Shown here one piece after another: positions 3,447 to 25,114 of a stretch of 32,000 nucleotides of DNA (positions are counted from its first letter, which is position 1; every line of letters starts with the position of its first letter). This stretch comes from Geobacter metallireducens GS-15 (lineage in GTDB: Bacteria > Desulfobacterota > Desulfuromonadia > Geobacterales > Geobacteraceae). The DNA lies in the NCBI RefSeq assembly GCF_000012925.1, contig NC_007517.1, positions 510,001-542,000 on the forward strand, read 5' to 3'. The position numbers were made by a program, and so were the translations under genes. The notes under the pieces were generated by a model that was not told where the DNA came from, did not search any database, and saw only the letters and a list, made by a program, of their open reading frames with translations.

Positions 3447-3470
3447 TAGCGGTACAACAAAATACATTTT

Positions 3471-3654
3471 ACGTTCAGGTGCTTTTGCCTCATGGCAGAA
3501 GGTAAAAGGGAAAAGGGTGCGACTCCCTTGCTGTCCCGCAACTGTGAACGGTGATGAAAGCCGCAACGATGCCACTGATCTGGTTTCCATGATGAAACCC
3601 CGGGAAGGCGCGGCGAGTAAAGTGATCCGTGAGCCAGGAAACCTGCCTGACCGT
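3471..3654 (+). promoter_or_regulatory. Cobalamin (AdoCbl) riboswitch aptamer
   Basis: Conserved core elements read directly: AAAAGGGAAAAGGGTGCGACTCC, GCTGTCCCGCAACTGTGAA, GCCACTG, CCCGGGAAGGCG and the B12 box GAGCCAGGAAACCTGCC. P1 candidate ACGTTCAGG (3471-3479) with CCTGACCGT (3646-3654). Confidence 0.85.
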
Positions 3655-3721
3655 CAGCTTCACAGGACCTCCGTGGAAGAGGCTCCGAGGCCCGGCGTTC
3701 GGCTTTTCACCGGTTTTTGGA

Positions 3722-3756: not shown

Positions 3757-4275
3757 ATGGCGCCAGTGATTTTCATAACCGGGGGGGGCCGCAGCGGCAA
3801 GAGCCGGCTGGCCGAGCGCATCTCGGGGGGGTTCGGCGCCCCCCTGGGCTACCTGGCCACCGGAACCGCCGGCGACGGGGAGATGGCGGAGCGGATTGCC
3901 CGCCACCGGCAGCGGCGGGGTGACGACTGGACCACCATCGAAGAGCCGCTTGATCTTGCCGGCGTCCTCCGGGAGAACGACGGCCGCTTCAGCGCCATCC
4001 TCGTGGACTGTGTGACCCTCTGGCTCACGAATCTCCTTCTTGCCTGCGACGACCCTGCCCGGTGTGTGGCGCGAGTCAAAGAGCTGACGTCGCTTTTCCC
4101 TCAGCTCACGACCCCGCTGGTCCTCGTTTCCAACGAGGTGGGGATGGGGATTGTTCCCGAGAACCGGCTTGCCCGCCAGTTCCGCGACTTGGCCGGAGAG
4201 GCCAACGAGATGATCGCCGCCGCGGCCGGCGAGGTTTACGTAACCTTCAGCGGACTGCCGTTGAGATTGAAGTGA
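3757..4275 (+). CDS. cobU: Adenosylcobinamide kinase / adenosylcobinamide-phosphate guanylyltransferase
   Basis: 172 aa. [20 protein letters not shown] (P-loop), [40 protein letters not shown]. The ORF upstream of 3757 overlaps the riboswitch and is rejected. Confidence 0.9.
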
Positions 4276-4279
4276 ATGT

Positions 4280-4344
4280 GTAGGGGCGCTGCTTGCCGCA
4301 CCCTTTGTGCAGTTGAAGAAGGGCGCGGCAAGCGGCGCCCCTAC
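4280..4344. repeat. 26-bp-arm intercistronic hairpin (cobU|cobT)
   Basis: GTAGGGGCGCTGCTTGCCGCACCCTT (4280-4305) and AAGGGCGCGGCAAGCGGCGCCCCTAC (4319-4344) are reverse complements at 24/26 positions, with a 13 nt loop. Confidence 0.8.
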
Positions 4345-4369
4345 GAATAATCTTGAAAAGAGGTACTCT

Positions 4370-5431
4370 ATGACCCTGTTGACCGAAACCCTGTCAAATA
4401 TCCGTCCCGTGGACGCCGGCCTCATGGCCCAGGCCCAGGCGCGGCTCGACAACAAGACCAAGCCCATCGGCTCCCTCGGCCGCCTGGAGGAGTTCGCCCG
4501 GCGCACCGTGGCCATTAGCGGGAGCCTGGACCCTTCTACGGCGAAGAAAGCGATCTTCACCTTCGCCGCCGACCACGGGGTGGTGGAGGAGGGGGTTTCC
4601 GCCTTCCCGAAGGAAGTGACGGTCCAGATGGTCTTCAATTTCCTCAAGGGGGGAGCCGGGATCAACGTCCTTGCCAACCACGTGGGTGCCGATGTCCTCG
4701 TGGTGGACATGGGGATCGACCATGATTTCGGCGACACCCCTGGCCTCATCGACCGCAAGGTGGCCCGCGGTACCCGCAACATGGCGAAGGGGCCGGCCAT
4801 GACCCGGGAGGAGGCCGTGACGGCCCTGGAAGCGGGGATCGAACTGGCCTGCGGCTGCAAGGCCGACGGAGTTGCCATGGCGGGTACCGGGGAGATGGGA
4901 ATCGGCAACACGACGGCGGCATCGGCCATCATCGCCGCCTTCTCCGGGAAAACCGTCGCCGACGTGACCCACCGGGGAACCGGCATCAATGACGCCGCAC
5001 TGGCGAAGAAGGTCACGATCATCGAGCAGGCCCTTGCCGTGAACCGCCCCGACCCGAAGGACCCCATCGACGTCCTTGCCAAGGTGGGGGGGCTGGAGAT
5101 CGCCGGCATCGCCGGCCTTGTCCTCGGCTGCGCCGCCAATCGGATTCCGGTGGTGGTGGACGGCTTCATCTCCACGGCCGGCGCCCTCATTGCCTGTGAG
5201 CTTTGCCCCACGGTGAAGGAGTACATTTTCGCGGCCCACGAGTCGGTGGAGATCGGCCACCGGTTCATGCTGGAGCGGATCGGCGCGGAACCGATCCTCG
5301 ATCTGCACCTGCGCCTCGGCGAGGGGACCGGAGCGGCTCTGGCCATGGGGCTCATCGAAGCGGGAGTCAAGATTCTGAAAGAAATGGCCACCTTCGCGGA
5401 GGCCGGCGTGGAAAAAGGCCGGGACCAGTAA
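4370..5431 (+). CDS. cobT: Nicotinate-nucleotide--dimethylbenzimidazole phosphoribosyltransferase
   Basis: ATG at 4370 after [56 protein letters not shown] are CobT signatures. The stop TAA (5429-5431) lies inside a degenerate heptamer unit of repeat A. Confidence 0.9.
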
Positions 5432-5559
5432 CCGGGGACCAGGGACTGGGAAAACCTTTATCCAACCGATGAACGGGATCAGGAACATGAATATGCTGAA
5501 GTCGCATGAGCAGAAGAGGTTTTTTACCGGTCCCCGGTCCCCGGTCCCCAGTCCCCGCC
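5417..5559. repeat. GGGGACC-heptamer inverted-repeat element A (spans the cobT stop and cobS 5' end)
   Basis: + arm GGCCGGGACCAGTAACCGGGGACCAGGGACTGGGAAAACC (5417-5456). - arm GGTTTTTACCGGTCCCCGGTCCCCGGTCCCCAGTCCCCGCC (5518-5559). 61 nt spacer containing ATGs at 5469, 5487 and 5493. Confidence 0.85.
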
Positions 5560-6293
5560 TTTTCTTTATCGCCTTCCAGTTCCTGACCATCATCCCCCTG
5601 CCGTTCACCCTCCGTTGGGAGGAGAACGACCTGGGGCGCTCCATGGCGTTCTTTCCCCTGGCGGGGCTCACCATAGGCGGGCTCCTGGCCGGGGCTGACT
5701 TTCTCCTGGCGGAGGTTCTGCCCCGCCCGATTGAGGACCTCCTCCTGGTGGCGCTCCTGGCGGCCATGACCGGGGCGCTCCACCACGACGGGCTCGCCGA
5801 TGTCTGCGACGGCCTGGCTGCCCGGGGGAGCCGGGACCGTTTCCTGGCGGTGATGAAGGATTCGCGCATCGGCGCCGTGGGGGTGGTGGGGCTCGTGCTG
5901 GGGCTTCTCCTCAAGTACCAGGCCCTCCTGGCCCTTTCCCCCGAGGTGAAGCGCCAGGTCCTCTTCTTCTTCCCGGCCGTGGCCCGCTTCGCCCAGGTGC
6001 AGATGACCGTCGGTTCCCGGCGGGCTCGGGAGGACGGCCTCGGCGCCGCCTGTATCGCCGGTGCCGGTGTGACACAGCTTCTGGTGGCTGGGGCCATAAC
6101 TCTTGCTGCGACGTATTTTCTTCTCGGCATGAAGGGGATCGGTTGCTGGGCGGTCCTCTCCCTCTTCACGGCCGGGACAAAGGCCTGGTCCCACCGGCGC
6201 CTCGGCGGGGTGACCGGCGATGTCATCGGCTGTGCCAGTGAGTTGAACGAAATTATCTGCCTGCTGATTATTGTGGGCATGCAGAAGATGTAA
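5469..6293 (+). CDS. cobS: Adenosylcobinamide-GDP ribazoletransferase (cobalamin 5'-phosphate synthase)
   Basis: FQFLTIIPLP..., HHDGLADVCDG, multiple TM segments typical of CobS. Start uncertain (ATG 5469, 5487 or 5493, none with a strong SD). All candidates force translation of the C-rich repeat arm (TGPRSPVPSPR) as an N-terminal extension. Confidence 0.8.
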   Translation: MNGIRNMNMLKSHEQKRFFTGPRSPVPSPRLFFIAFQFLTIIPLPFTLRWEENDLGRSMAFFPLAGLTIGGLLAGADFLLAEVLPRPIEDLLLVALLAAMTGALHHDGLADVCDGLAARGSRDRFLAVMKDSRIGAVGVVGLVLGLLLKYQALLALSPEVKRQVLFFFPAVARFAQVQMTVGSRRAREDGLGAACIAGAGVTQLLVAGAITLAATYFLLGMKGIGCWAVLSLFTAGTKAWSHRRLGGVTGDVIGCASELNEIICLLIIVGMQKM

Positions 6294-11532: not shown

Positions 11533-12365
11533 CGCGCCTCTCCGTGGATATTCGGGCCTTCACCTACCCCGACGGCACCCGGGCCCTGGCCGACATCCGG
11601 TTTGAGGTGGGAAAGGGTGAATTCTGCGGCATCCTCGGCTCCAACGGGTCGGGGAAGACGACCCTTCTCAGGATCATGGACGGCCTCGTCAAGGATTACG
11701 ATGGCCAGGTGCTCCTGGACGGCCGGGACGTGCGGAAGCTCCATCCCCGGGATATCTACCGGACCGTGGGGCTCGTCTTCCAGAATCCCGACGACCAGCT
11801 TTTCGCCCACACGGTCTTCGAGGATGTGGCCTTCGGCCCCCGCAACATGGGGTTTGGGGAGGCGGCGGTGAAGGGGCGGGTGGAGGAGGCTCTGGCCGCG
11901 GTGGAGATGGGGGAGCTGGCCGGCAAGAATATCCACGCCCTCAGCTACGGCCAGAAGAAGCGGGTCTGCATTGCCGGGCTCCTGGCCATGGGGCATGAGG
12001 TGCTCCTTATGGACGAGCCCACCGCCGGCCTCGATCCCATGGGGGAGTACCGGATGATGGAGCTCCTGACGCGGCTCAACCGCGACCAGGGGGTGACCGT
12101 CGTCATGGCGACCCACTCGGTGGATCTGGTCCCCCTTTTCCTCCACCGGCTCCACATCCTGAGCCGGGGGAAGATCGTCCGGAGTGGCCCCCCCGAGGAG
12201 GTCTTCACCGCACCAGCCGAACTGGAAAGCGTCAAGCTGCGGCTTCCCCACATCGCCGAGCTGATTCACCGGCTGAAGCACGAGGACGGCCTTCCCTTCC
12301 GGCGGCTTCCTCTCACCATTGGCGAGGCCCGGCGGGAGATCGTGGAAATACTGCAAAAACATTAG
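11523..12365 (+). CDS. cbiO: ECF transporter ATPase CbiO
   Basis: GTG 11523 overlapping the cbiQ end. Walker A GSNGSGKTT, signature LSYGQKKR, Walker B LLMDEPTAGLD. Confidence 0.9.
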   Translation: MAIARLSVDIRAFTYPDGTRALADIRFEVGKGEFCGILGSNGSGKTTLLRIMDGLVKDYDGQVLLDGRDVRKLHPRDIYRTVGLVFQNPDDQLFAHTVFEDVAFGPRNMGFGEAAVKGRVEEALAAVEMGELAGKNIHALSYGQKKRVCIAGLLAMGHEVLLMDEPTAGLDPMGEYRMMELLTRLNRDQGVTVVMATHSVDLVPLFLHRLHILSRGKIVRSGPPEEVFTAPAELESVKLRLPHIAELIHRLKHEDGLPFRRLPLTIGEARREIVEILQKH

Positions 12366-12467
12366 CCACAGAGGACACAGAGCGCACAGAGAATGGCTTT
12401 TGGCCCATGAGTCTTGGAAAACGGAGTTTGTTTCCTTTTTCTCTGTGTCCTCTGTGATCTCTGTGGC
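12365..12467. repeat. CACAGAG-type tandem-unit hairpin F2 (cbiO|cbiX)
   Basis: GCCACAGAG-GA-CACAGAG-CG-CACAGAGAA (12365-12393) vs TTCTCTGTG-TC-CTCTGTG-AT-CTCTGTGGC (12439-12467). Complementary except for the 2 nt inter-unit spacers. 45 nt loop. Confidence 0.85.
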
Positions 12468-12483
12468 AAAGAATGGAGTGCTC

Positions 12484-13535: not shown

Positions 13536-14645
13536 ATGAACACGAAACCACTCCGTCACGGTTACACCACCGGCGCCTGTGCCGCCGCCGCCGCCAAGGG
13601 GGCAGCCCGGATGCTCCGGGAGCAGCGTCCCGTGGAGGAGGTGGAGCTCGTCCTTCCCAAAGGAGAGCGGGTCGCTTTTCGCCTCCATGGCCAGGAATTC
13701 GATGACAGCGCCGCCTCCTGCTTCGTGGTGAAGGACGCGGGGGACGACCCCGACGTGACCAACGGCGCCGAGATCCACGCCCGGGTCCGGCGCGAGCCCC
13801 TGAACCGCTCCGGCGCCCGGACCATGGTCTTCGTGGATGGCGGGAAGGGGGTCGGCACGGTGACCAAACCGGGGCTCGGGGTGGGGGTGGGGAATCCGGC
13901 CATCAACCCGGTGCCGATGCGGATGATCACCGAGGGGGTGAAGGAAGAGTTCTCCGTCGTCTGCCTTCCCCAGGTTCTCCACGTCACCATCTCCATCCCC
14001 AACGGCGAGGAACTGGCGAAGAAGACCCTCAATGCCCGCCTCGGCATCGTGGGGGGGCTCTCCATCCTCGGCACCACCGGCATCGTGCGCCCCATCTCCG
14101 CCAAGGCCTGGACCGATACCCTCGATGCGGCCCTGGACGTGGCCCGGGCCTGCGGCTGCGAAACGATTGTCCTCTCCACGGGGAGGACCAGCGAGTTGGT
14201 GGCTATACATGCCGGGATCGGGGACCGGGGACCGGGGACCGGGAAAACCTTGCCCGAAGAGGCCTATGTGATGATGGGGGACCACGTGGGGTACGCGCTC
14301 CGGGCCTGCGCCCGCAAGGGGGTGCGTCACGTTATCCTGGTGGGGCAGTTCGCCAAGCTCCTCAAGATTGCCTGCGGCCACGAGCAGACCCACGTCTCCT
14401 CCTCGGAGCTGGATCTGCAAATGCTGGCGGAGTGGCTTCACGAATTGGGTTCCCGGTCCCCGGTCCCCGGCCCCTGGTCCCGGTACAACACCGCCCGCCA
14501 GGTGCTGGAGGAGTCGGGTAACGACTCGCTCTTCATGGAGCTCGTCTGTACCCGGGCCCGTGATGCGGCCCGGCGCCTGGCCCCTTCCCTCGACATCAAG
14601 GTTTTGCTGGCAGGGTACGATTCAACGGTGCTATATTTCGGGTAA
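13536..14645 (+). CDS. cbiD: Cobalt-precorrin-5B (C1)-methyltransferase
   Basis: 369 aa. LRHGYTTGACAAAAAKGA, DAGDDPDVTNG, NPAINPVP, GGLSILGTTGIVRP. Contains two in-frame heptamer-repeat arms (see repeats B+ and B-). Confidence 0.9.
   Translation: MNTKPLRHGYTTGACAAAAAKGAARMLREQRPVEEVELVLPKGERVAFRLHGQEFDDSAASCFVVKDAGDDPDVTNGAEIHARVRREPLNRSGARTMVFVDGGKGVGTVTKPGLGVGVGNPAINPVPMRMITEGVKEEFSVVCLPQVLHVTISIPNGEELAKKTLNARLGIVGGLSILGTTGIVRPISAKAWTDTLDAALDVARACGCETIVLSTGRTSELVAIHAGIGDRGPGTGKTLPEEAYVMMGDHVGYALRACARKGVRHVILVGQFAKLLKIACGHEQTHVSSSELDLQMLAEWLHELGSRSPVPGPWSRYNTARQVLEESGNDSLFMELVCTRARDAARRLAPSLDIKVLLAGYDSTVLYFG
14211..14249. repeat. GGGGACC-heptamer arm B+ inside cbiD
   Basis: GCCGGGATCGGGGACCGGGGACCGGGGACCGGGAAAACC, translated GIGDRGPGTGKT. 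Four G-runs separated by 3 nt. Confidence 0.85.
14447..14486. repeat. GGTCCCC-heptamer arm B- inside cbiD (inverted partner of B+)
   Basis: GGGTTCCCGGTCCCCGGTCCCCGGCCCCTGGTCCCGGTAC, translated GSRSPVPGPWSRY. About 200 nt downstream of B+. Confidence 0.85.
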
Positions 14646-14681
14646 AATTTCGGCATGGAAACCTTCGTCGGGGAGAATGTC

Positions 14682-14999
14682 ATGACAGAGCCTCGTATCC
14701 ATATCCCGCGAGACAGAATCATAGAATTCTGCCAGCGGTGGAAGATCACGGAGTTTTCACTTTTCGGCTCGGTGCTCCGCGACGATTTCCGGCCCGACAG
14801 CGATGTTGACGTGCTGATTTCCTTTGCCCCGGACGCCGCATGGACCCTGCTCGACCATGTGGATATGCAGGACGAGCTCCAGACGATCTTCGGCCGGAGC
14901 GTGGATCTCGTGAGCCGCAAGGGGATAGAGCGAAGCCGGAACGAAGTGCGGCGCAAAGCCATTCTTGAGTCAGCGGAGATCTTCTATGAAGCCGCGTGA
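14682..14999 (+). CDS. MNT-type nucleotidyltransferase (type VII antitoxin, MntA-like)
   Basis: FGSVLRDDFRPDSDVDVLISF is the GSxxR...DxD minimal nucleotidyltransferase motif. ATG 14682 after GGGGAGA (ATG 14655 is an alternative). The stop overlaps the downstream HEPN gene by 14 nt. Confidence 0.8.
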   Translation: MTEPRIHIPRDRIIEFCQRWKITEFSLFGSVLRDDFRPDSDVDVLISFAPDAAWTLLDHVDMQDELQTIFGRSVDLVSRKGIERSRNEVRRKAILESAEIFYEAA

Positions 15000-15336
15000 C
15001 CTGGCTTCGCTCGTTGACATCATCGAAGCCGCTCGTTTGGCCCGGAGTTTCCTGGCTGGAATCGCCAAGAATAATTTCGATTCGAATCTGATGGTCCAGT
15101 CCGCCGTCATACGCCAGATCGAGGTCATGGGGGAGGCGACGAAGCGACTCTCGGAGGAGTTCCGAAATGACCATCCCCATGTCCCCTGGCGCAAGATCGC
15201 CGGCATGCGGGATATTCTGATCCACGCCTACGATCATGTGGACCCGGATGAAGTCTGGAATGTCGTGACGGGTGCCATGCCCGGGCTCCTCGAGCAGCTC
15301 GAACTGCTCCTGAAATCACAACGATTGGATGGTTAA
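14986..15336 (+). CDS. HepT-like HEPN/DUF86 toxin
   Basis: RDILIHAYDHV is the Rx4HxY HEPN RNase motif. DUF86-like helices (QSAVIRQIEVMGEA). ATG 14986 overlaps the MNT gene. Confidence 0.8.
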   Translation: MKPRDLASLVDIIEAARLARSFLAGIAKNNFDSNLMVQSAVIRQIEVMGEATKRLSEEFRNDHPHVPWRKIAGMRDILIHAYDHVDPDEVWNVVTGAMPGLLEQLELLLKSQRLDG

Positions 15337-18102: not shown

Positions 18103-19158
18103 TTGCGCATCGCCATCATCGCCATAACCCGCAACGGCGCCCGGCTCGGCACGCAGCTGCGGGACGGGCTCGGAAGCGCGGAGCTCTACGTCCTGCAGAA
18201 ATTCGCCGGGCAAGCAGGGACGGGGGCCGTTCCCTTTGCGGGGGAGCTCAAGGGACTGGTGGCGGAACTCTGGCCTGCCTTCGACGGTTTTGTCTTTATC
18301 ATGGCCACGGGAATCGTGGTCCGGATGGTGGCACCCCACCTGGTTGCCAAGGATCTGGACCCGGCGGTGGTGGTGATGGACGATGCCGGCAAATTCGCCG
18401 TCTCTCTTCTCTCGGGGCACCTGGGGGGGGCCAACGAGCTCGCCTGCCGCTGTGCTTTCGTGACCGGCGCCCGGGAGGTGATTACCACCGCCACCGACGC
18501 CAACAATCTCCCTTCCTTTGATATGCTGGCCAAGGAGGAGGGGTGGGCCATCGACGACCTCTGTCGGGTGAAGACCCTGAACGCGCTCATTCTTGAGGGG
18601 GAGGAGATCGCCGTGGTGGACCCCACCGACCGGGTGCGGACCGCCTTCCACGGCACGGCGCGACTCACCTTCCACGATACCTTTGTGGAGGCCCTCCAGA
18701 GCGGCGCCAAGGGTTTTGTCTTCGTCACCAACCGACGGCTCCCCCCCCAGGCCCAGGCGGACAGCCTCCTCATCCTGCGCCCCCGCAACCTGGCCCTCGG
18801 CATCGGCTGCAACAGCGGCACCGGGGCCGAGGAAATAGCAGCGGTGGTGGGCGCCCAGATGAAGCGCCTCTTCCTCTCCCTGAAGAGCGTCGCCTGCATC
18901 GGGAGCGCCGTGGCCAAGCAGGACGAGGCAGGGCTTCTGGCCTTTGCCCGGGAGCACGGCCTCCCCCTTCGCTTCTTCGAGAGTGGGGAGCTGAACAGCG
19001 TCACCGTGCCGTCACCCCCCTCGGCCCACGCCCTGGAGGCCATCGGCGCCACCGGCGTTGCCGAGCCGGCTGCGGTGCTGGCATCCAACGGCGGGCGGCT
19101 CCTGCTGAAAAAGATCAAGAGCGGCAACGTGACGCTCGCCATCGCTGAAATACCGTAA
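18103..19158 (+). CDS. cbiG: Cobalt-precorrin-5A hydrolase
   Basis: TTG 18103, 6 nt after AGGAGG. IAIIAITRNGARL, ATGIVVRMVAP, SLLSGHLGGANELA, C-terminal CbiG_C (LGIGCNSG...). Confidence 0.85.
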   Translation: MRIAIIAITRNGARLGTQLRDGLGSAELYVLQKFAGQAGTGAVPFAGELKGLVAELWPAFDGFVFIMATGIVVRMVAPHLVAKDLDPAVVVMDDAGKFAVSLLSGHLGGANELACRCAFVTGAREVITTATDANNLPSFDMLAKEEGWAIDDLCRVKTLNALILEGEEIAVVDPTDRVRTAFHGTARLTFHDTFVEALQSGAKGFVFVTNRRLPPQAQADSLLILRPRNLALGIGCNSGTGAEEIAAVVGAQMKRLFLSLKSVACIGSAVAKQDEAGLLAFAREHGLPLRFFESGELNSVTVPSPPSAHALEAIGATGVAEPAAVLASNGGRLLLKKIKSGNVTLAIAEIP

Positions 19159-19164
19159 GCTATC

Positions 19165-19253
19165 AAGAATCCAGAATTCAGAAGCCAGAATTCAGAAGAA
19201 AAGCACGGTCTTTTCATGATGTCTACTTCTGTATTCTGACTCCTGACTCCTTC
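19165..19253. repeat. CAGAAKY-heptamer tandem-unit hairpin G (cbiG|cbiH)
   Basis: AAGAATC-CAGAATT-CAGAAGC-CAGAATT-CAGAAG (19165-19198) vs CTTCTGTATTCTGACTCCTGACTCCTTC (19226-19253). Imperfect inverted arms of period 7, 27 nt loop. Confidence 0.75.
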
Positions 19254-19267
19254 ATTTGAGGTTAACC

Positions 19268-21661
19268 ATGTCCAAGCTCTACGTCGTCGGCATCGGTCCC
19301 GGCGACCTCGACCATATGACCTTCCAGGCCAACGAGGCCCTTGACGCCGCCGATGTGGTGGTGGGGTACAAGACCTACCTGGACCTGATCGCCCCTCTCA
19401 TCGCCGGCAAGGAGATTATCTCCTCCGGAATGATGAAGGAGGTGGAGCGCTGCCGCGAAGCCTTGGACCTGGCCGCCTCGGGGAAGACGGTGGCCCTGGT
19501 CTCCAGCGGCGACGCCGGCATCTACGGCATGGCGGGGCTCGCCCTGGAGCTGGCGGCGGAGTTGGTCGCCCCCCCCGAGATCGTAGTGGTTCCCGGCGTT
19601 TCGGCCGTGCAGGCGGCTGCAGCGGTCCTCGGCGCTCCCCTTATGCATGATTTCACCGTCATCTCCCTCTCGGATCTCCTGACCCCGTGGGACCTCATCG
19701 AACGGCGGCTTGTGGCCGCCGCCACGGCCGATTTCGTCGTAGCCCTCTACAACCCCCGGAGCAAGGGGCGGGTGCAGCAGATCGAGGAGGCCCGGCAGAT
19801 CCTCCTGTCTGCCCGGCCGGCCGATACCCCGGTGGGGATCGTCCGCAACGCCTTGCGGGAGGGGGAGGAGCGGATCGTCACCACCCTCGGAAGGATGCTC
19901 GACCACCCCATCGATATGTTCTCTCTGGTCATCGTGGGGAACTCTGCCACCTTCGTCGACCCGGCGGGGCGGATGGTGACCCCGCGCGGCTACGCCGCCG
20001 GGATCCGGGACCGGGGACCAGGGGAAAAGGCCGGGACCGGGGACCAGGGACCAGGGACCAGGGAAAAACAAAAAAAACCAGTCACTGAGTACTCGGTGGA
20101 TTCCCCGTCTCAGATTTTGAATTCCCGGTCCCCGGTCCCTGGTCCCCGGTCCCGGTCTTTGATGGTGGTCGGTACGGCCTCCGATGTGGGCAAATCGGTC
20201 CTCACGGCCGGCATCTGCCGCATCCTCAAGAACCGGGGGCTCCGGGTGGCCCCCTTCAAGTCCCAGAACATGGCCCTCAACTCGGCGGTCACCCCCGAGG
20301 GAGGGGAGATCGGCCGGGCCCAGGCGGTACAGGCGGCGGCCTGCGGCATCCCCCCCCATGCCGACATGAACCCGATCCTCCTGAAACCCTCCTCCGATAC
20401 GGGAAGTCAGGTCATCGTCGCGGGTGAGGTGGTGGGGAATATGTCGGTGCGGGAGTACCACGCCTATAAACCCATGGCTTTCGAGCAGGTACGGGAAAGT
20501 TTTGACCGCCTCTCCTCGGCCCACGATGTCGTGGTCATCGAGGGGGCCGGAAGCATCGCCGAGATCAACCTGAAAGCCCACGACATCGCCAACCTGAAGG
20601 TGGCCGAGATGGCCGGATGCCGGGCCATCCTCGTGGCCGACATTGACCGGGGCGGGGTCTTCGCCCAGATCGTGGGGACCCTGGAGCTTCTGGAGCCGGC
20701 GGAGCGGGAGCGGATCGCGGGCATCGTCATCAACAAGTTCCGGGGGGATGCCTCGCTTCTCACGCCGGGAATCAAGTTCGTGGAGAAGCGGACCGGGGTG
20801 CCGGTTCTGGGGGTGGTCCCCTGCTTCAGCGGCTTCCGCATCCCCGAGGAGGACAGCGTCGCCCTGGAAAAACGGGGATCGGGGACCGGGGACCGGGGAC
20901 CGGGGGAAAAGCTCAAAATCGGGGTGGTGAAGCTGTCGCGGATCTCCAACTACACCGACTTCGACGCCTTGGAAGCGGAACCCGACGTGCGTCTTACCTA
21001 CGTGGAAGGGGCGGACCAGCTCCGGGGGCTCGATCTCCTCATTATCCCCGGGAGCAAGGCGACCACCACCGACCTCTACTTCCTCATGGAGCGGGGGCTC
21101 TTCGAGGCGATCCGGGCCTTTCAGGGGCTCATCGTGGGCATCTGCGGCGGCTACCAGATGCTGGGAAAGCGGGTCTCCGACCCCCACGCCGTGGAGTCGG
21201 GGATCCGGGAGGCCGAAGGGCTGGGTCTTCTGGACGTGGTGACGGTGATGCTGGAAAAGAAGACCACCCACCAGGCCCGGGCGGAACTCCTGCCGGCGGG
21301 GTACCAGGTGGCTCCCCGCTGCCGGGGCGAGCTGGAGGGGTACGAAATTCACATGGGGGAAACGATCCTCGGTCCGAGCGTCCGCCCCTTTGCCCGGGCC
21401 ACGGAACGGTCGGGGCGGGCGGTGGAGGTGCTGGACGGCGCCGTCTCCTGCGACGGCCGGGTCTTCGGCACTTACCTCCACGGCATCTTCGACAACGCCG
21501 GTTTCCGCTCCGCCTTCCTCAACAAGCTCCGGCGGGCCAAGGGGCTTGTTGAGCGCCCCGCGGCGGAGGCGCAGGACGACCCCTTTGATCTCCTGGCGGC
21601 CCACCTGGAGAAGCACCTGGACATGGAGCGGCTCCTGGCCGTCTGCGGGCTTGCCCGGTGA
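19268..21661 (+). CDS. cbiH-cobQ: Single uninterrupted ORF: CbiH (cobalt-factor III C17-methyltransferase, ~19268-19997) fused to CobQ/CbiP (cobyric acid synthase, ~20162-21661)
   Basis: CbiH: KLYVVGIGPGDLDHMT, SSGDAGIYGMAG, ...MVTPRGY (normal CbiH C-terminus). CobQ: LMVVGTASDVGKSV, APFKSQNMALNS, GATase IGVVKLSRISNYTDFD, ICGGYQMLG, TYLHGIFDN. There is no in-frame stop between the two. An in-frame ATG at 20162 could also allow independent CobQ initiation. Confidence 0.85.
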   Translation: MSKLYVVGIGPGDLDHMTFQANEALDAADVVVGYKTYLDLIAPLIAGKEIISSGMMKEVERCREALDLAASGKTVALVSSGDAGIYGMAGLALELAAELVAPPEIVVVPGVSAVQAAAAVLGAPLMHDFTVISLSDLLTPWDLIERRLVAAATADFVVALYNPRSKGRVQQIEEARQILLSARPADTPVGIVRNALREGEERIVTTLGRMLDHPIDMFSLVIVGNSATFVDPAGRMVTPRGYAAGIRDRGPGEKAGTGDQGPGTREKQKKPVTEYSVDSPSQILNSRSPVPGPRSRSLMVVGTASDVGKSVLTAGICRILKNRGLRVAPFKSQNMALNSAVTPEGGEIGRAQAVQAAACGIPPHADMNPILLKPSSDTGSQVIVAGEVVGNMSVREYHAYKPMAFEQVRESFDRLSSAHDVVVIEGAGSIAEINLKAHDIANLKVAEMAGCRAILVADIDRGGVFAQIVGTLELLEPAERERIAGIVINKFRGDASLLTPGIKFVEKRTGVPVLGVVPCFSGFRIPEEDSVALEKRGSGTGDRGPGEKLKIGVVKLSRISNYTDFDALEAEPDVRLTYVEGADQLRGLDLLIIPGSKATTTDLYFLMERGLFEAIRAFQGLIVGICGGYQMLGKRVSDPHAVESGIREAEGLGLLDVVTVMLEKKTTHQARAELLPAGYQVAPRCRGELEGYEIHMGETILGPSVRPFARATERSGRAVEVLDGAVSCDGRVFGTYLHGIFDNAGFRSAFLNKLRRAKGLVERPAAEAQDDPFDLLAAHLEKHLDMERLLAVCGLAR
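19998..20157. repeat. GGGGACC-heptamer inverted-repeat element C (forms the whole cbiH::cobQ linker)
   Basis: Two tandem + arms CCGGGATCCGGGACCGGGGACCAGGGGAAAAGG and CCGGGACCGGGGACCAGGGACCAGGGACCAGGGAAAAAC (19998-20070), an A-rich spacer, then - arm GAATTCCCGGTCCCCGGTCCCTGGTCCCCGGTCCCGGTC (20119-20157). Confidence 0.85.
20873..20912. repeat. GGGGACC-heptamer solo arm D inside cobQ (interdomain linker)
   Basis: CGGGGATCGGGGACCGGGGACCGGGGACCGGGGGAAAAGC, translated RGSGTGDRGPGEKL. Lies between the ATPase-like and glutamine amidotransferase domains. Confidence 0.85.
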
Positions 21662-22614: not shown

Positions 22615-22730
22615 ACACAGAGGCGCAGAGACACAGAGATGGTAATTCCGGAGACCCTGGCTGAAATCTGTTTGCTTGCAGGGTAACACCTTAAAACGGT
22701 TTTCCTCTGGGTCCCTGTGCCCCTGTGGTG
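22615..22730. repeat. CACAGAG-type tandem-unit hairpin F4 (cbiB|cobD)
   Basis: ACACAGAG-GCGCAGAG-ACACAGAG-A (22615-22639, period 8) vs TCCTCTGGGTCCCTGTGCCCCTGTGGTG (22703-22730). Degenerate inverted arms, 63 nt spacer. Confidence 0.65.
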
Positions 22731-22746
22731 AAAGGTTTTACGAATA

Positions 22747-25114
<2,368 letters not shown>

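Follow-up and report, generated by a model that had tools for sequence, protein, structure and literature searches.

How does a repeat of the kind that elsewhere fills the gaps between genes come to be translated as the linker between two enzymes? The question is posed by a 32,000-nt stretch of the Geobacter metallireducens GS-15 genome (NC_007517.1, positions 510,001 to 542,000; hereafter the window, in whose numbering positions are given), in which one open reading frame (ORF) joins cbiH to cobQ across a spacer made of heptamer arrays that can pair with each other. We consider it most probable, at roughly 0.58, that this linker hairpin is a tolerated, stop-free passenger: one copy of a dispersed heptamer-array repeat, similar to repetitive extragenic palindromes (REP) and short tandemly repeated repetitive elements (STRR), that is kept uniform throughout the genome and whose function is unproven. 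Comparison with relatives further indicates that the fusion is old and family-wide, and that the element occupies a spacer that existed before it.

The ORF occupies the plus strand from 19256, or from its ATG at 19268, to 21661 and encodes 797 amino acids followed by a stop codon (Gmet_0485; Table S4 of PMC2700814); a GAGG Shine-Dalgarno sequence lies 5' of ATG 19268. Both enzymes are complete. Residues 4-243 (19277-19996, plus strand), for which AlphaFold predicts a confident fold, constitute an entire CbiH (cobalt-precorrin-3 C17-methyltransferase) and match the NCBIfam model TIGR01466 (cobJ_cbiH) over positions 1-239 of 239 with 323.1 bits (cut-off, 246.35). Residues 297-792 (20156-21643, plus strand) constitute an entire CobQ (adenosylcobyric acid synthase; CobQ/CbiP family, also TIGR00313), matching the NCBIfam model NF001989 over positions 2-478 of 480 with 643.9 bits (cut-off, 273); Pfam agrees, placing the ATPase (CbiA/AAA_26) on residues 296-521 and GATase_3 on 550-744. 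The original prediction, an earlier reading of this DNA, had proposed a single cbiH-cobQ ORF of 797 codons, and the ORF call and the two full-length domains bear it out. It had also remarked that the two enzymes act far apart, in agreement with established knowledge: CbiH and CobQ catalyze distant steps of the pathway.

The intervening residues 244-296 (19997-20155, plus strand) consist wholly of repeat, a stop-free run of 53 codons of GGGACCN heptamer arrays. The sequence of this translated repeat and its freedom from stop codons had been read correctly before, its length having been put at 55 codons. Its G-rich arm is Gmet_H411 (20025-20069, plus strand; published as 530025-530069), with about 4.5 GGGACCN units in an array at 20033-20064 and A-rich flanks (AAAAGGCC ... 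GGGAAAAC, at 20025-20032 and 20062-20069) that are also present in the rows of the published Fig. S2. An A-rich loop follows (20070-20116, plus strand), which as read directly from the sequence includes a run of eight A residues at 20070-20077, and then Gmet_H412 (20117-20161, minus strand; published as 530117-530161), which is C-rich on the plus strand, has its array at 20124-20153 and ends 1 nt before ATG 20162. The arms are 92% complementary (20026-20062 against 20124-20160), and the linker RNA is predicted to fold at -114 kcal/mol (z = -6.8), with none of 200 shuffled sequences as stable. An extra partial G-rich array (20000-20024, plus strand) lies within 33 nt inserted in frame at 19994-20026, a duplication of the G arm that GS-15 alone possesses: the alignment of Geobacter loci shows no counterpart in G. 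grbiciae, G. benzoatilyticus or a G. sulfurreducens-like locus. A known RNA family was rejected as the identity of the hairpin: no Rfam match reached its gathering score, and at E <= 1 the region 19100-21000 returned only sub-threshold matches to miRNA precursors, as generic long hairpins.

Further along the same ORF, Gmet_H413 (20867-20911, plus strand; published as 530867-530911) is a solo G-rich array, GSGTGDRGPGEK, in the linker between the ATPase and GATase domains of CobQ (residues ~536-547). It is a canonical G-quadruplex motif and, with quadruplexes allowed, its predicted energy changes from -21 to -43 kcal/mol, with a four-layer quadruplex. Indeed, every G array, including those at 14214-14237 and 20000-20056, is a canonical quadruplex motif with at least four tracts of three or four G residues, and the H elements account for seven of the 12 quadruplex motifs of the window. 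The window holds 24 occurrences of the heptamer motif, where 1.3 would be expected, and Tandem Repeats Finder together with pattern matches located tandem units at 20007-20064, 20124-20157 and 20873-20905.

By identity, the linker arrays are members of the Gmet_H4 family, which was described in the genome paper as four GGGACCG repeats in 49 copies between and within genes (Aklujkar et al., 2009, BMC Microbiol 9:109; PMC2700814, Fig. S2 and Table S4). Subtracting 510000 from the published coordinates gives the window positions, with matching sequences, for H407 (515413-515457), H411, H412 and H413. Table S4 of that paper annotates Gmet_0485 as bifunctional and gives H411, H412 and H413 as 'within Gmet_0485', places H409 and H410 within cbiD, H407 between cobT and cobS and H408 within cobS, and records, for a Ddl-FtsQ fusion, H403 as lying in the 'linker between fused proteins' (PMC2700814). 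Without testing them, its authors termed the elements putative regulatory RNA or putative global regulatory elements, and binding of the IHF/HU type was raised for sister families (PMC2700814). The usual layout comprises about four GGGACCN units with A-rich flanks, a G array being followed by a pairing C array. Seven of the 49 genomic copies (H407-H413) fall into the window and thus cluster in the cob operon, and by our own count of Table S4 17 of the 49 are intragenic. The fused gene and its translated repeats were therefore already annotated in 2009 and the feature is already known; since it was recorded in that supplement, our knowledge of cobamide synthesis and of gene fusion is unchanged. 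The objects are the same, but pairing polarity, comparative turnover, concerted evolution and the age of the fusion were not analyzed in the 2009 paper. In the searchable literature no paper names Gmet_0485, and GGGACCG occurs together with Geobacter in no paper beyond the 2009 one.

Repeat and domain analysis located a counterpart of the translated linker at the junction of cobT and cobS, where the pair Gmet_H407/H408 (5413-5563) touches both genes. The cobT stop codon, TAA, lies inside the H407 G array through a GG-to-TA change (GGGACCAGTAACC against the consensus GGGACCAGGGACC), and the H408 C array is translated as an N-terminal extension of CobS, TGPRSPVPSPR. The view that a repeat of intercistronic type is translated between CbiH and CobQ is supported by this second case.

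It had further been suggested that the element replaced a stop/start junction, and this part of the prediction is not supported for this genome. In a protein search, at least 120 clusters of 760-817 amino acids cover the full query at 65-96% identity. They span Geobacter, Geotalea, Geomobilimonas and Citrifermentans, the fused proteins including those of G. grbiciae, G. benzoatilyticus, G. pickeringii, a multi-species Geobacter record, Geotalea uraniireducens, Geotalea daltonii (named bifunctional by its source) and Geomobilimonas. This protein list is skewed towards fusions, and we therefore counted loci from fusion-independent DNA scans of genome contigs and metagenomes. Their matches were mostly unrelated stand-alone cobQ genes, the named close Geobacter genomes were not among the matches listed, and the metagenome scan had eight fusions among those listed. 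On this basis, a single ORF is present in 12 of 12 Geobacteraceae-like loci among the matches listed (L005, L006, L009, L010 and L089-L096), and outside the Geobacteraceae cbiH lies directly upstream of cobQ, unfused, in two of the 71 loci tested among them. In both of the latter, from metagenome-assembled genomes (MAGs) of Nitrospirae (L007:1980-2900) and Clostridiales (L008:10001-10881), the two genes share a frame and are separated by stop codons, an unfused arrangement from which stop-codon loss could yield the fusion.

The hairpin is less widespread than the fusion. Fused lineages without a significant linker fold are represented by L003, L005, L009, L010 and L089-L091. The linker DNA is homologous, loop included, in four Geobacter loci (GS-15, G. 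grbiciae, G. benzoatilyticus and the G. sulfurreducens-like locus, L001), and in the last of these the arms are homologous but decayed (z = 0.3). Because the fusion extends across the Geobacteraceae and is also found where the hairpin is missing or has decayed, it was not the element that joined the two genes in this genome, and the hairpin is dispensable. Comparison with relatives, a check that had been named from the start, finds the ORF intact in every one of them despite differing array lengths and units. The ancient origin of the fusion may itself have been read-through of such a spacer.

The spacer is hypervariable. Heptad-periodic peptides are found in both linkers, the one between the enzymes and the one within CobQ, in most of about 120 homologues, and their units are lineage-specific. 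Hairpins in the inter-enzyme linker are built from GGAGTGA/CCCTCAC in L087 (z = -7.7), from GGTTCTA/GGTTCGAA in G. daltonii (L004; z = -5.5) and from GGCAAAG in L094 (z = -6.0), with further examples in L096, L092 and L088. The fused proteins P0082 and P0077 are 99.9% identical outside the linker and have unrelated linkers. Likewise, L094 and L095 share ~94% nucleotide identity on both sides of ~100 nt that cannot be aligned and that extend exactly from PRGY-E to the CobQ ATG. These comparisons show a cassette-like turnover of the linker.

In cbiD, repeat and comparative analysis place the pair Gmet_H409/H410 (14206-14489) on either side of conserved coding sequence. The cbiD arrays flank exactly 183 nt and are mutually complementary, with lineage-specific units: the predicted duplexes are formed by GGGACCG in GS-15 (-85 kcal/mol) and G. 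grbiciae (-82 kcal/mol), by GGGAAGC/GCTTCCC in L087 (-72 kcal/mol) and by GGGGACT/GATCCCC in L088 (-54 kcal/mol). Three other lineages do not have the cbiD arrays, and G. benzoatilyticus is without one arm.

Moreover, dispersed sites switch their unit together. In L169 (L169:1759-8580, MAG contig k141_811175, protein P0008), which has ~90% nucleotide identity to GS-15 in the flanks, GGGACTC/GAGTCCC is found in five of five orthologous arrays and GGGACCG in none. These are cbiD sites 1 and 2, the two arms of the linker and the site within CobQ (orthologous to H409-H413), the last of which has 7 units against ~4.5 in GS-15 and keeps the frame. In L087, the two cbiD sites and the CobQ internal site share the unit GGGAAGC. 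Array units evolve in concert across dispersed sites. That heptamer-array hairpins can insert as units in the GS-15 lineage is indicated by a sister family: a CACAGAG/CTCTGTG hairpin of ~110 nt has inserted cleanly at 12362-12470, between cbiO and cbiX, two genes that overlap in G. grbiciae and G. benzoatilyticus, which do not have it. Its arrival gave cbiO a different C-terminus and left the Shine-Dalgarno sequence of cbiX in place.

The sites that receive arrays in the fused protein are predicted to be permissive ones. In an AlphaFold2 model built with a 42-sequence alignment (mean predicted local distance difference test score, pLDDT, 75.6), pLDDT falls below 50 at residues 240-293 (the H411/H412 linker) and 527-545 (the H413 site), which suggests that both array-bearing linkers are disordered. 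The repeat unit itself is well suited to translation. None of the six frames of GGGACCG and GGGACCA has a stop codon; the peptides they specify are (GTGDRGP)n from one strand and (RSPVPGP)n from the other, and the peptide of GGGACCN is rich in Gly, Pro, Ser, Thr, Asp and Arg, a composition of the disordered type. In the L087 linker, the one unit that departs from the consensus, GGAGTTA, avoids the in-frame TGA to which GGAGTGA would give rise.

Comparison shows that an ancestor of the Geobacteraceae acquired the fusion, the two enzymes being separated by a disordered spacer, and that this spacer, hypervariable like an intercistronic gap, is colonized or overwritten repeatedly by the heptamer family active in each genome. 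As judged from conservation, its sole visible local constraint would be to stay stop-free and a multiple of three, because CobQ is without start signals of its own and would be translated by read-through from CbiH. GGGACCN fits that constraint through its six stop-free frames and its disordered peptide. The ribosome would then read through the hairpin to give a single polypeptide of ~86 kDa, and the linker array would have no local function, neither producing the fusion nor controlling it. The near-perfect pairing of the arms would be upheld by homogenization throughout the genome and not by selection on this mRNA; copy-and-paste mobility, ectopic gene conversion and slippage with template switching are candidate processes for the homogenization.

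Several observations weigh against a mere passenger. The same two linkers carry heptamer arrays in most of ~120 lineages, and the cbiD arms co-vary across 183 nt, both of which could equally reflect selection for pairing or for the presence of an array. Polarity is fixed, given that all 11 adjacent pairs in GS-15 are of the (+,-) type, the G array coming first on either strand, and solo arrays tend to be G-rich on the sense strand (13 against 5, not significant, with gene strands deduced from the '3' of' and '5' of' wording of Table S4). The fixed polarity and the tendency of the solo arrays hint at a constraint at the transcript or mechanistic level, and recurrence at the same sites together with polarity somewhat favors a function or a directed mechanism. 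Finally, the H4 family could be linked to no mobilizing enzyme or donor copy, and no target-site duplication was identified, within the 32-kb window and with no genome-wide search made.

A further reading, the boldest, is doubtful. The two disordered CbiH-CobQ linkers and the two CbiD loops could be fixed landing pads for STRR-like arrays, able to persist within ORFs through a filter for stop-free, in-frame copies. Their cassette-like turnover between near-identical genes, their concerted unit changes and their G-first pairing would then reflect an undescribed trans-acting system that writes or homogenizes them; a mobilizing enzyme, a binder or templated repeat synthesis would be candidates for such a system. 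The arrays might then serve as a G-quadruplex or hairpin switch, or as a frameshift-prone contingency locus in B12 synthesis. If true, this would point to an array-writing or homogenizing system acting in trans that has so far escaped description.

We are also doubtful of a functional mRNA structure, in which the hairpins of the linker, the cobT/cobS junction and cbiD would act on the long cob transcript as a decay barrier, RNase III site, ribosome pause or coupling device, with translation as a tolerated side effect. Similar proposals exist for cyanobacterial STRR hairpins and for REP elements, and hairpins of 7-bp repeats between hupS and hupL offer a precedent (PMC2670836). The high stability of the stem, the clustering of seven of 49 copies in the cob operon, the recurrence of linker hairpins with lineage-specific sequences, the covariation of the cbiD arms over 183 nt and the fixed pair polarity are all in line with this possibility. 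However, arm mismatches over 15 hairpins comprise 28 of the G.U type, 41 of the A.C type and 33 transversions, and thus show no sense-strand bias towards wobble pairs, in a test whose 69 transitions give it low power. In several fused lineages, moreover, the hairpin is missing or has decayed, and unlinked sites switch their unit together, which local selection on RNA does not predict. In addition, every ribosome would melt a stem inside the ORF, a cut there would produce a cbiH message with no stop codon, a solo array is unable to form the hairpin, and Rfam returned only sub-threshold matches of the generic-hairpin kind.

A DNA-level element is unlikely but has points in its favor. The arrays would be sites for nucleoid proteins or a global regulator, or would form G-quadruplex, i-motif or cruciform structures that affect transcription, replication or recombination. 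The strand-symmetric mismatch spectrum fits such a role, as do the quadruplex motifs of the G arrays (seven of 12 in the window) and the quadruplex predicted for the solo array H413. A concerted change of unit would be compatible with co-evolution with a trans-acting binder, and putative global regulatory elements was the label chosen by the authors of the 2009 paper (PMC2700814). Against this, the units of other lineages at the same sites (GGTTCTA, GTTCCGA, GGCAAAG and GGAGTGA) do not form quadruplexes, there is no known binding protein, and an intragenic location, as for 17 of 49 copies, is an odd place for regulator sites.

Separate proteins made besides the fusion, either by initiation at ATG 20162 or by a -1 frameshift that releases free CbiH, seem very unlikely to us. 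The original prediction had placed the normal N-terminus of CobQ at about 20162 and had considered that mRNA structure could decide there between the fusion and separate products. CobQ is indeed complete, but the ATG at 20162-20164 (plus strand), although it sits 1 nt 3' of the stem, encodes Met299, a conserved internal residue in the first CobQ beta-strand, and is not a demonstrated start. Among the matches listed, the equivalent residue is Met in 61 of 67 stand-alone CobQ loci, whose real start lies 5-6 codons further upstream, as in MTQAIMLQGT. Because the normal CobQ N-terminus begins ~5 codons before Met299, ATG 20162 is not the ancestral start codon. Pairing with the anti-Shine-Dalgarno sequence is weak (-2.9 kcal/mol, against -6.8 at 19268 and -11.8 at cbiG), so that no Shine-Dalgarno sequence supports initiation there, some fused homologues have ALF in place of ALM and hence Leu-Phe without Met, and a scan of 18900-21100 returned neither a promoter-like nor a terminator-like site. 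We therefore reject an internal start at 20162 as unsupported.

The frameshift route draws on the run of eight A residues, which is in phase as A_AAA_AAA (20071-20077), has AGGGA before it and a small stem after it, and from which the -1 frame reaches a TGA (20086-20088) after three sense codons (T-S-H). In the alignment, G. grbiciae has seven A residues at the equivalent position, again with a TGA soon after in the -1 frame. On paper this stretch resembles -1 frameshift sites of the dnaX type, with which it shares an in-phase A-rich slippery heptamer, an upstream purine-rich motif similar to a Shine-Dalgarno sequence, a nearby downstream stem and an early -1 stop. Unlike these sites it reads A_AAA_AAA and not A_AAA_AAG, and it is a candidate from sequence alone. 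Since the A run is not conserved beyond G. grbiciae, the closest relative, we rate this route to free CbiH as unlikely. A switch could also find support in other lineages in a small stem that includes the Met codon and co-varies (His/Val 13 to 0, Gln/Leu 8 to 0), but this stem is absent in GS-15. It has the form CAUCACGGC-AAA-GCCGUGAUG, encodes the peptide HHGKAVM and occurs in the linkers of P0034-P0120, L087, L088 and L092, just 5' of the CobQ motif GTxSDVGKS; in 50-nt windows it is no energy outlier against the GC-rich coding background, and covariation of amino acids alone remains.

Finally, that a faulty assembly of the repeat, or an indel error in it, produced the fusion while the true genome has a stop codon is hardly credible: although heptamer arrays are indel-prone, a one-unit change shifts the frame and no independent assembly encoding exactly this protein was found on record, the ORF is intact in every relative with various array lengths and units, the genome is finished and manually curated by authors who annotated the fusion (PMC2700814), and the extra arm of GS-15 is an exact 33-nt in-frame insertion.

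With a tolerated, homogenized repeat copy as the preferred explanation of the linker hairpin, the known repeat systems offer several analogies. In architecture it resembles most closely the STRR hairpins, tandem 7-bp repeats that form hairpins at the intercistronic hupS-hupL junction and whose function is unknown (PMC2670836); common to both are dispersed tandem 7-nt units, inverted arrays and hairpins at operon junctions. By taxon and by sequence the element is no STRR, the hosts belonging to different phyla (Geobacter and heterocystous cyanobacteria), and STRR sequences have not been reported as translated in-frame protein linkers. An STRR is reportedly also found inside a structural RNA gene, going by the title of a 1997 article by Vioque, and the STRR1 unit, CCCCAGT, equals the GGGGACT unit of H407/H408 and L088.

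The element is also similar to REP/BIME sequences and REPINs (Bertels and Rainey, 2011; PMC3116915) in its inverted doublet with a spacer hairpin, its location mostly within operons, its lineage-specific sequences and its evolution within genomes. However, its arms are direct heptamer arrays whereas REP units are imperfect palindromes, and a third of the H4 copies are intragenic, with the linker copies translated, in contrast to an extragenic location. Furthermore, H4 arms can flank conserved host coding sequence, as in cbiD, and no RAYT transposase has been linked to H4 from the 32 kb covered. Nor does H4 fit the definition of a MITE (miniature inverted-repeat transposable element), with terminal inverted repeats, target-site duplication and a conserved interior: the loops of H4 pairs are unrelated (67, 61 and ~200 nt), and no clear target-site duplication was seen. 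In its consequence, the linker element resembles the Rickettsia palindromic elements (RPEs) and other in-frame MITE insertions, palindromic repeats that are translated at permissive sites of metabolic genes (PMC10969869). H4 linker arrays share this in-frame placement at permissive protein sites; RPEs, by contrast, are 100-150 bp long with a conserved encoded peptide and belong to Rickettsia, while H4 is a ~45-nt heptamer array with variable loops and independent arms.

The CbiH-CobQ linker provides a natural example of a disordered inter-enzyme linker that evolves like an intercistronic spacer under one constraint, to stay open and in frame, and of dispersed short repeats that survive translation when their unit is stop-free in every frame. 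How heptamer-array repeats spread is a question that dates from about 1990. The comparative patterns reported here would offer a handle on this spread, both for the H and I families of Geobacter and for cyanobacterial STRR sequences, and they are the part worth following. No description of cassette replacement, five-site concerted unit switching or fixed arm polarity was found in the searchable literature.

Several further features were noticed. Directly upstream of the fused gene, the spacer between cbiG and cbiH-cobQ holds Gmet_I302A/B (19162-19251), a pair from a different heptamer family (MTYCTGA) identified by repeat finding and by Table S4 and the class 3 alignment of PMC2700814. On the other side of the gene, between cbiH-cobQ and cbiB, a HAMP-HisKA sensor kinase gene is present in the G. 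sulfurreducens-like locus, G. uraniireducens (L003) and G. benzoatilyticus (L086), and not at that site in GS-15, G. grbiciae or G. daltonii. The cob operon also contains, between cbiD and cbiET, a toxin-antitoxin pair of the MNT-HepT type (nucleotidyltransferase/HepT-like; 14655-15336), which is shared with G. grbiciae and L169 and absent at that position from G. benzoatilyticus, the G. sulfurreducens-like locus, G. uraniireducens and G. daltonii. A cobalamin riboswitch (RF00174, 109.8 bits; 3460-3664), the only true Rfam match in the window, precedes cobU and corresponds to Gmet_R0070. Between cobU and cobT, a 39-nt inverted repeat (4267-4357; 79% complementary, 13-nt loop) overlaps the cobT start. 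A short tandem array, ACACAGAG, follows cbiB at 22615-22639, and the octamers AGCAACTG / CTCTGTTG at 25004-25111 match the published class 1 'GTTGCTYN' sites (PMC2700814).

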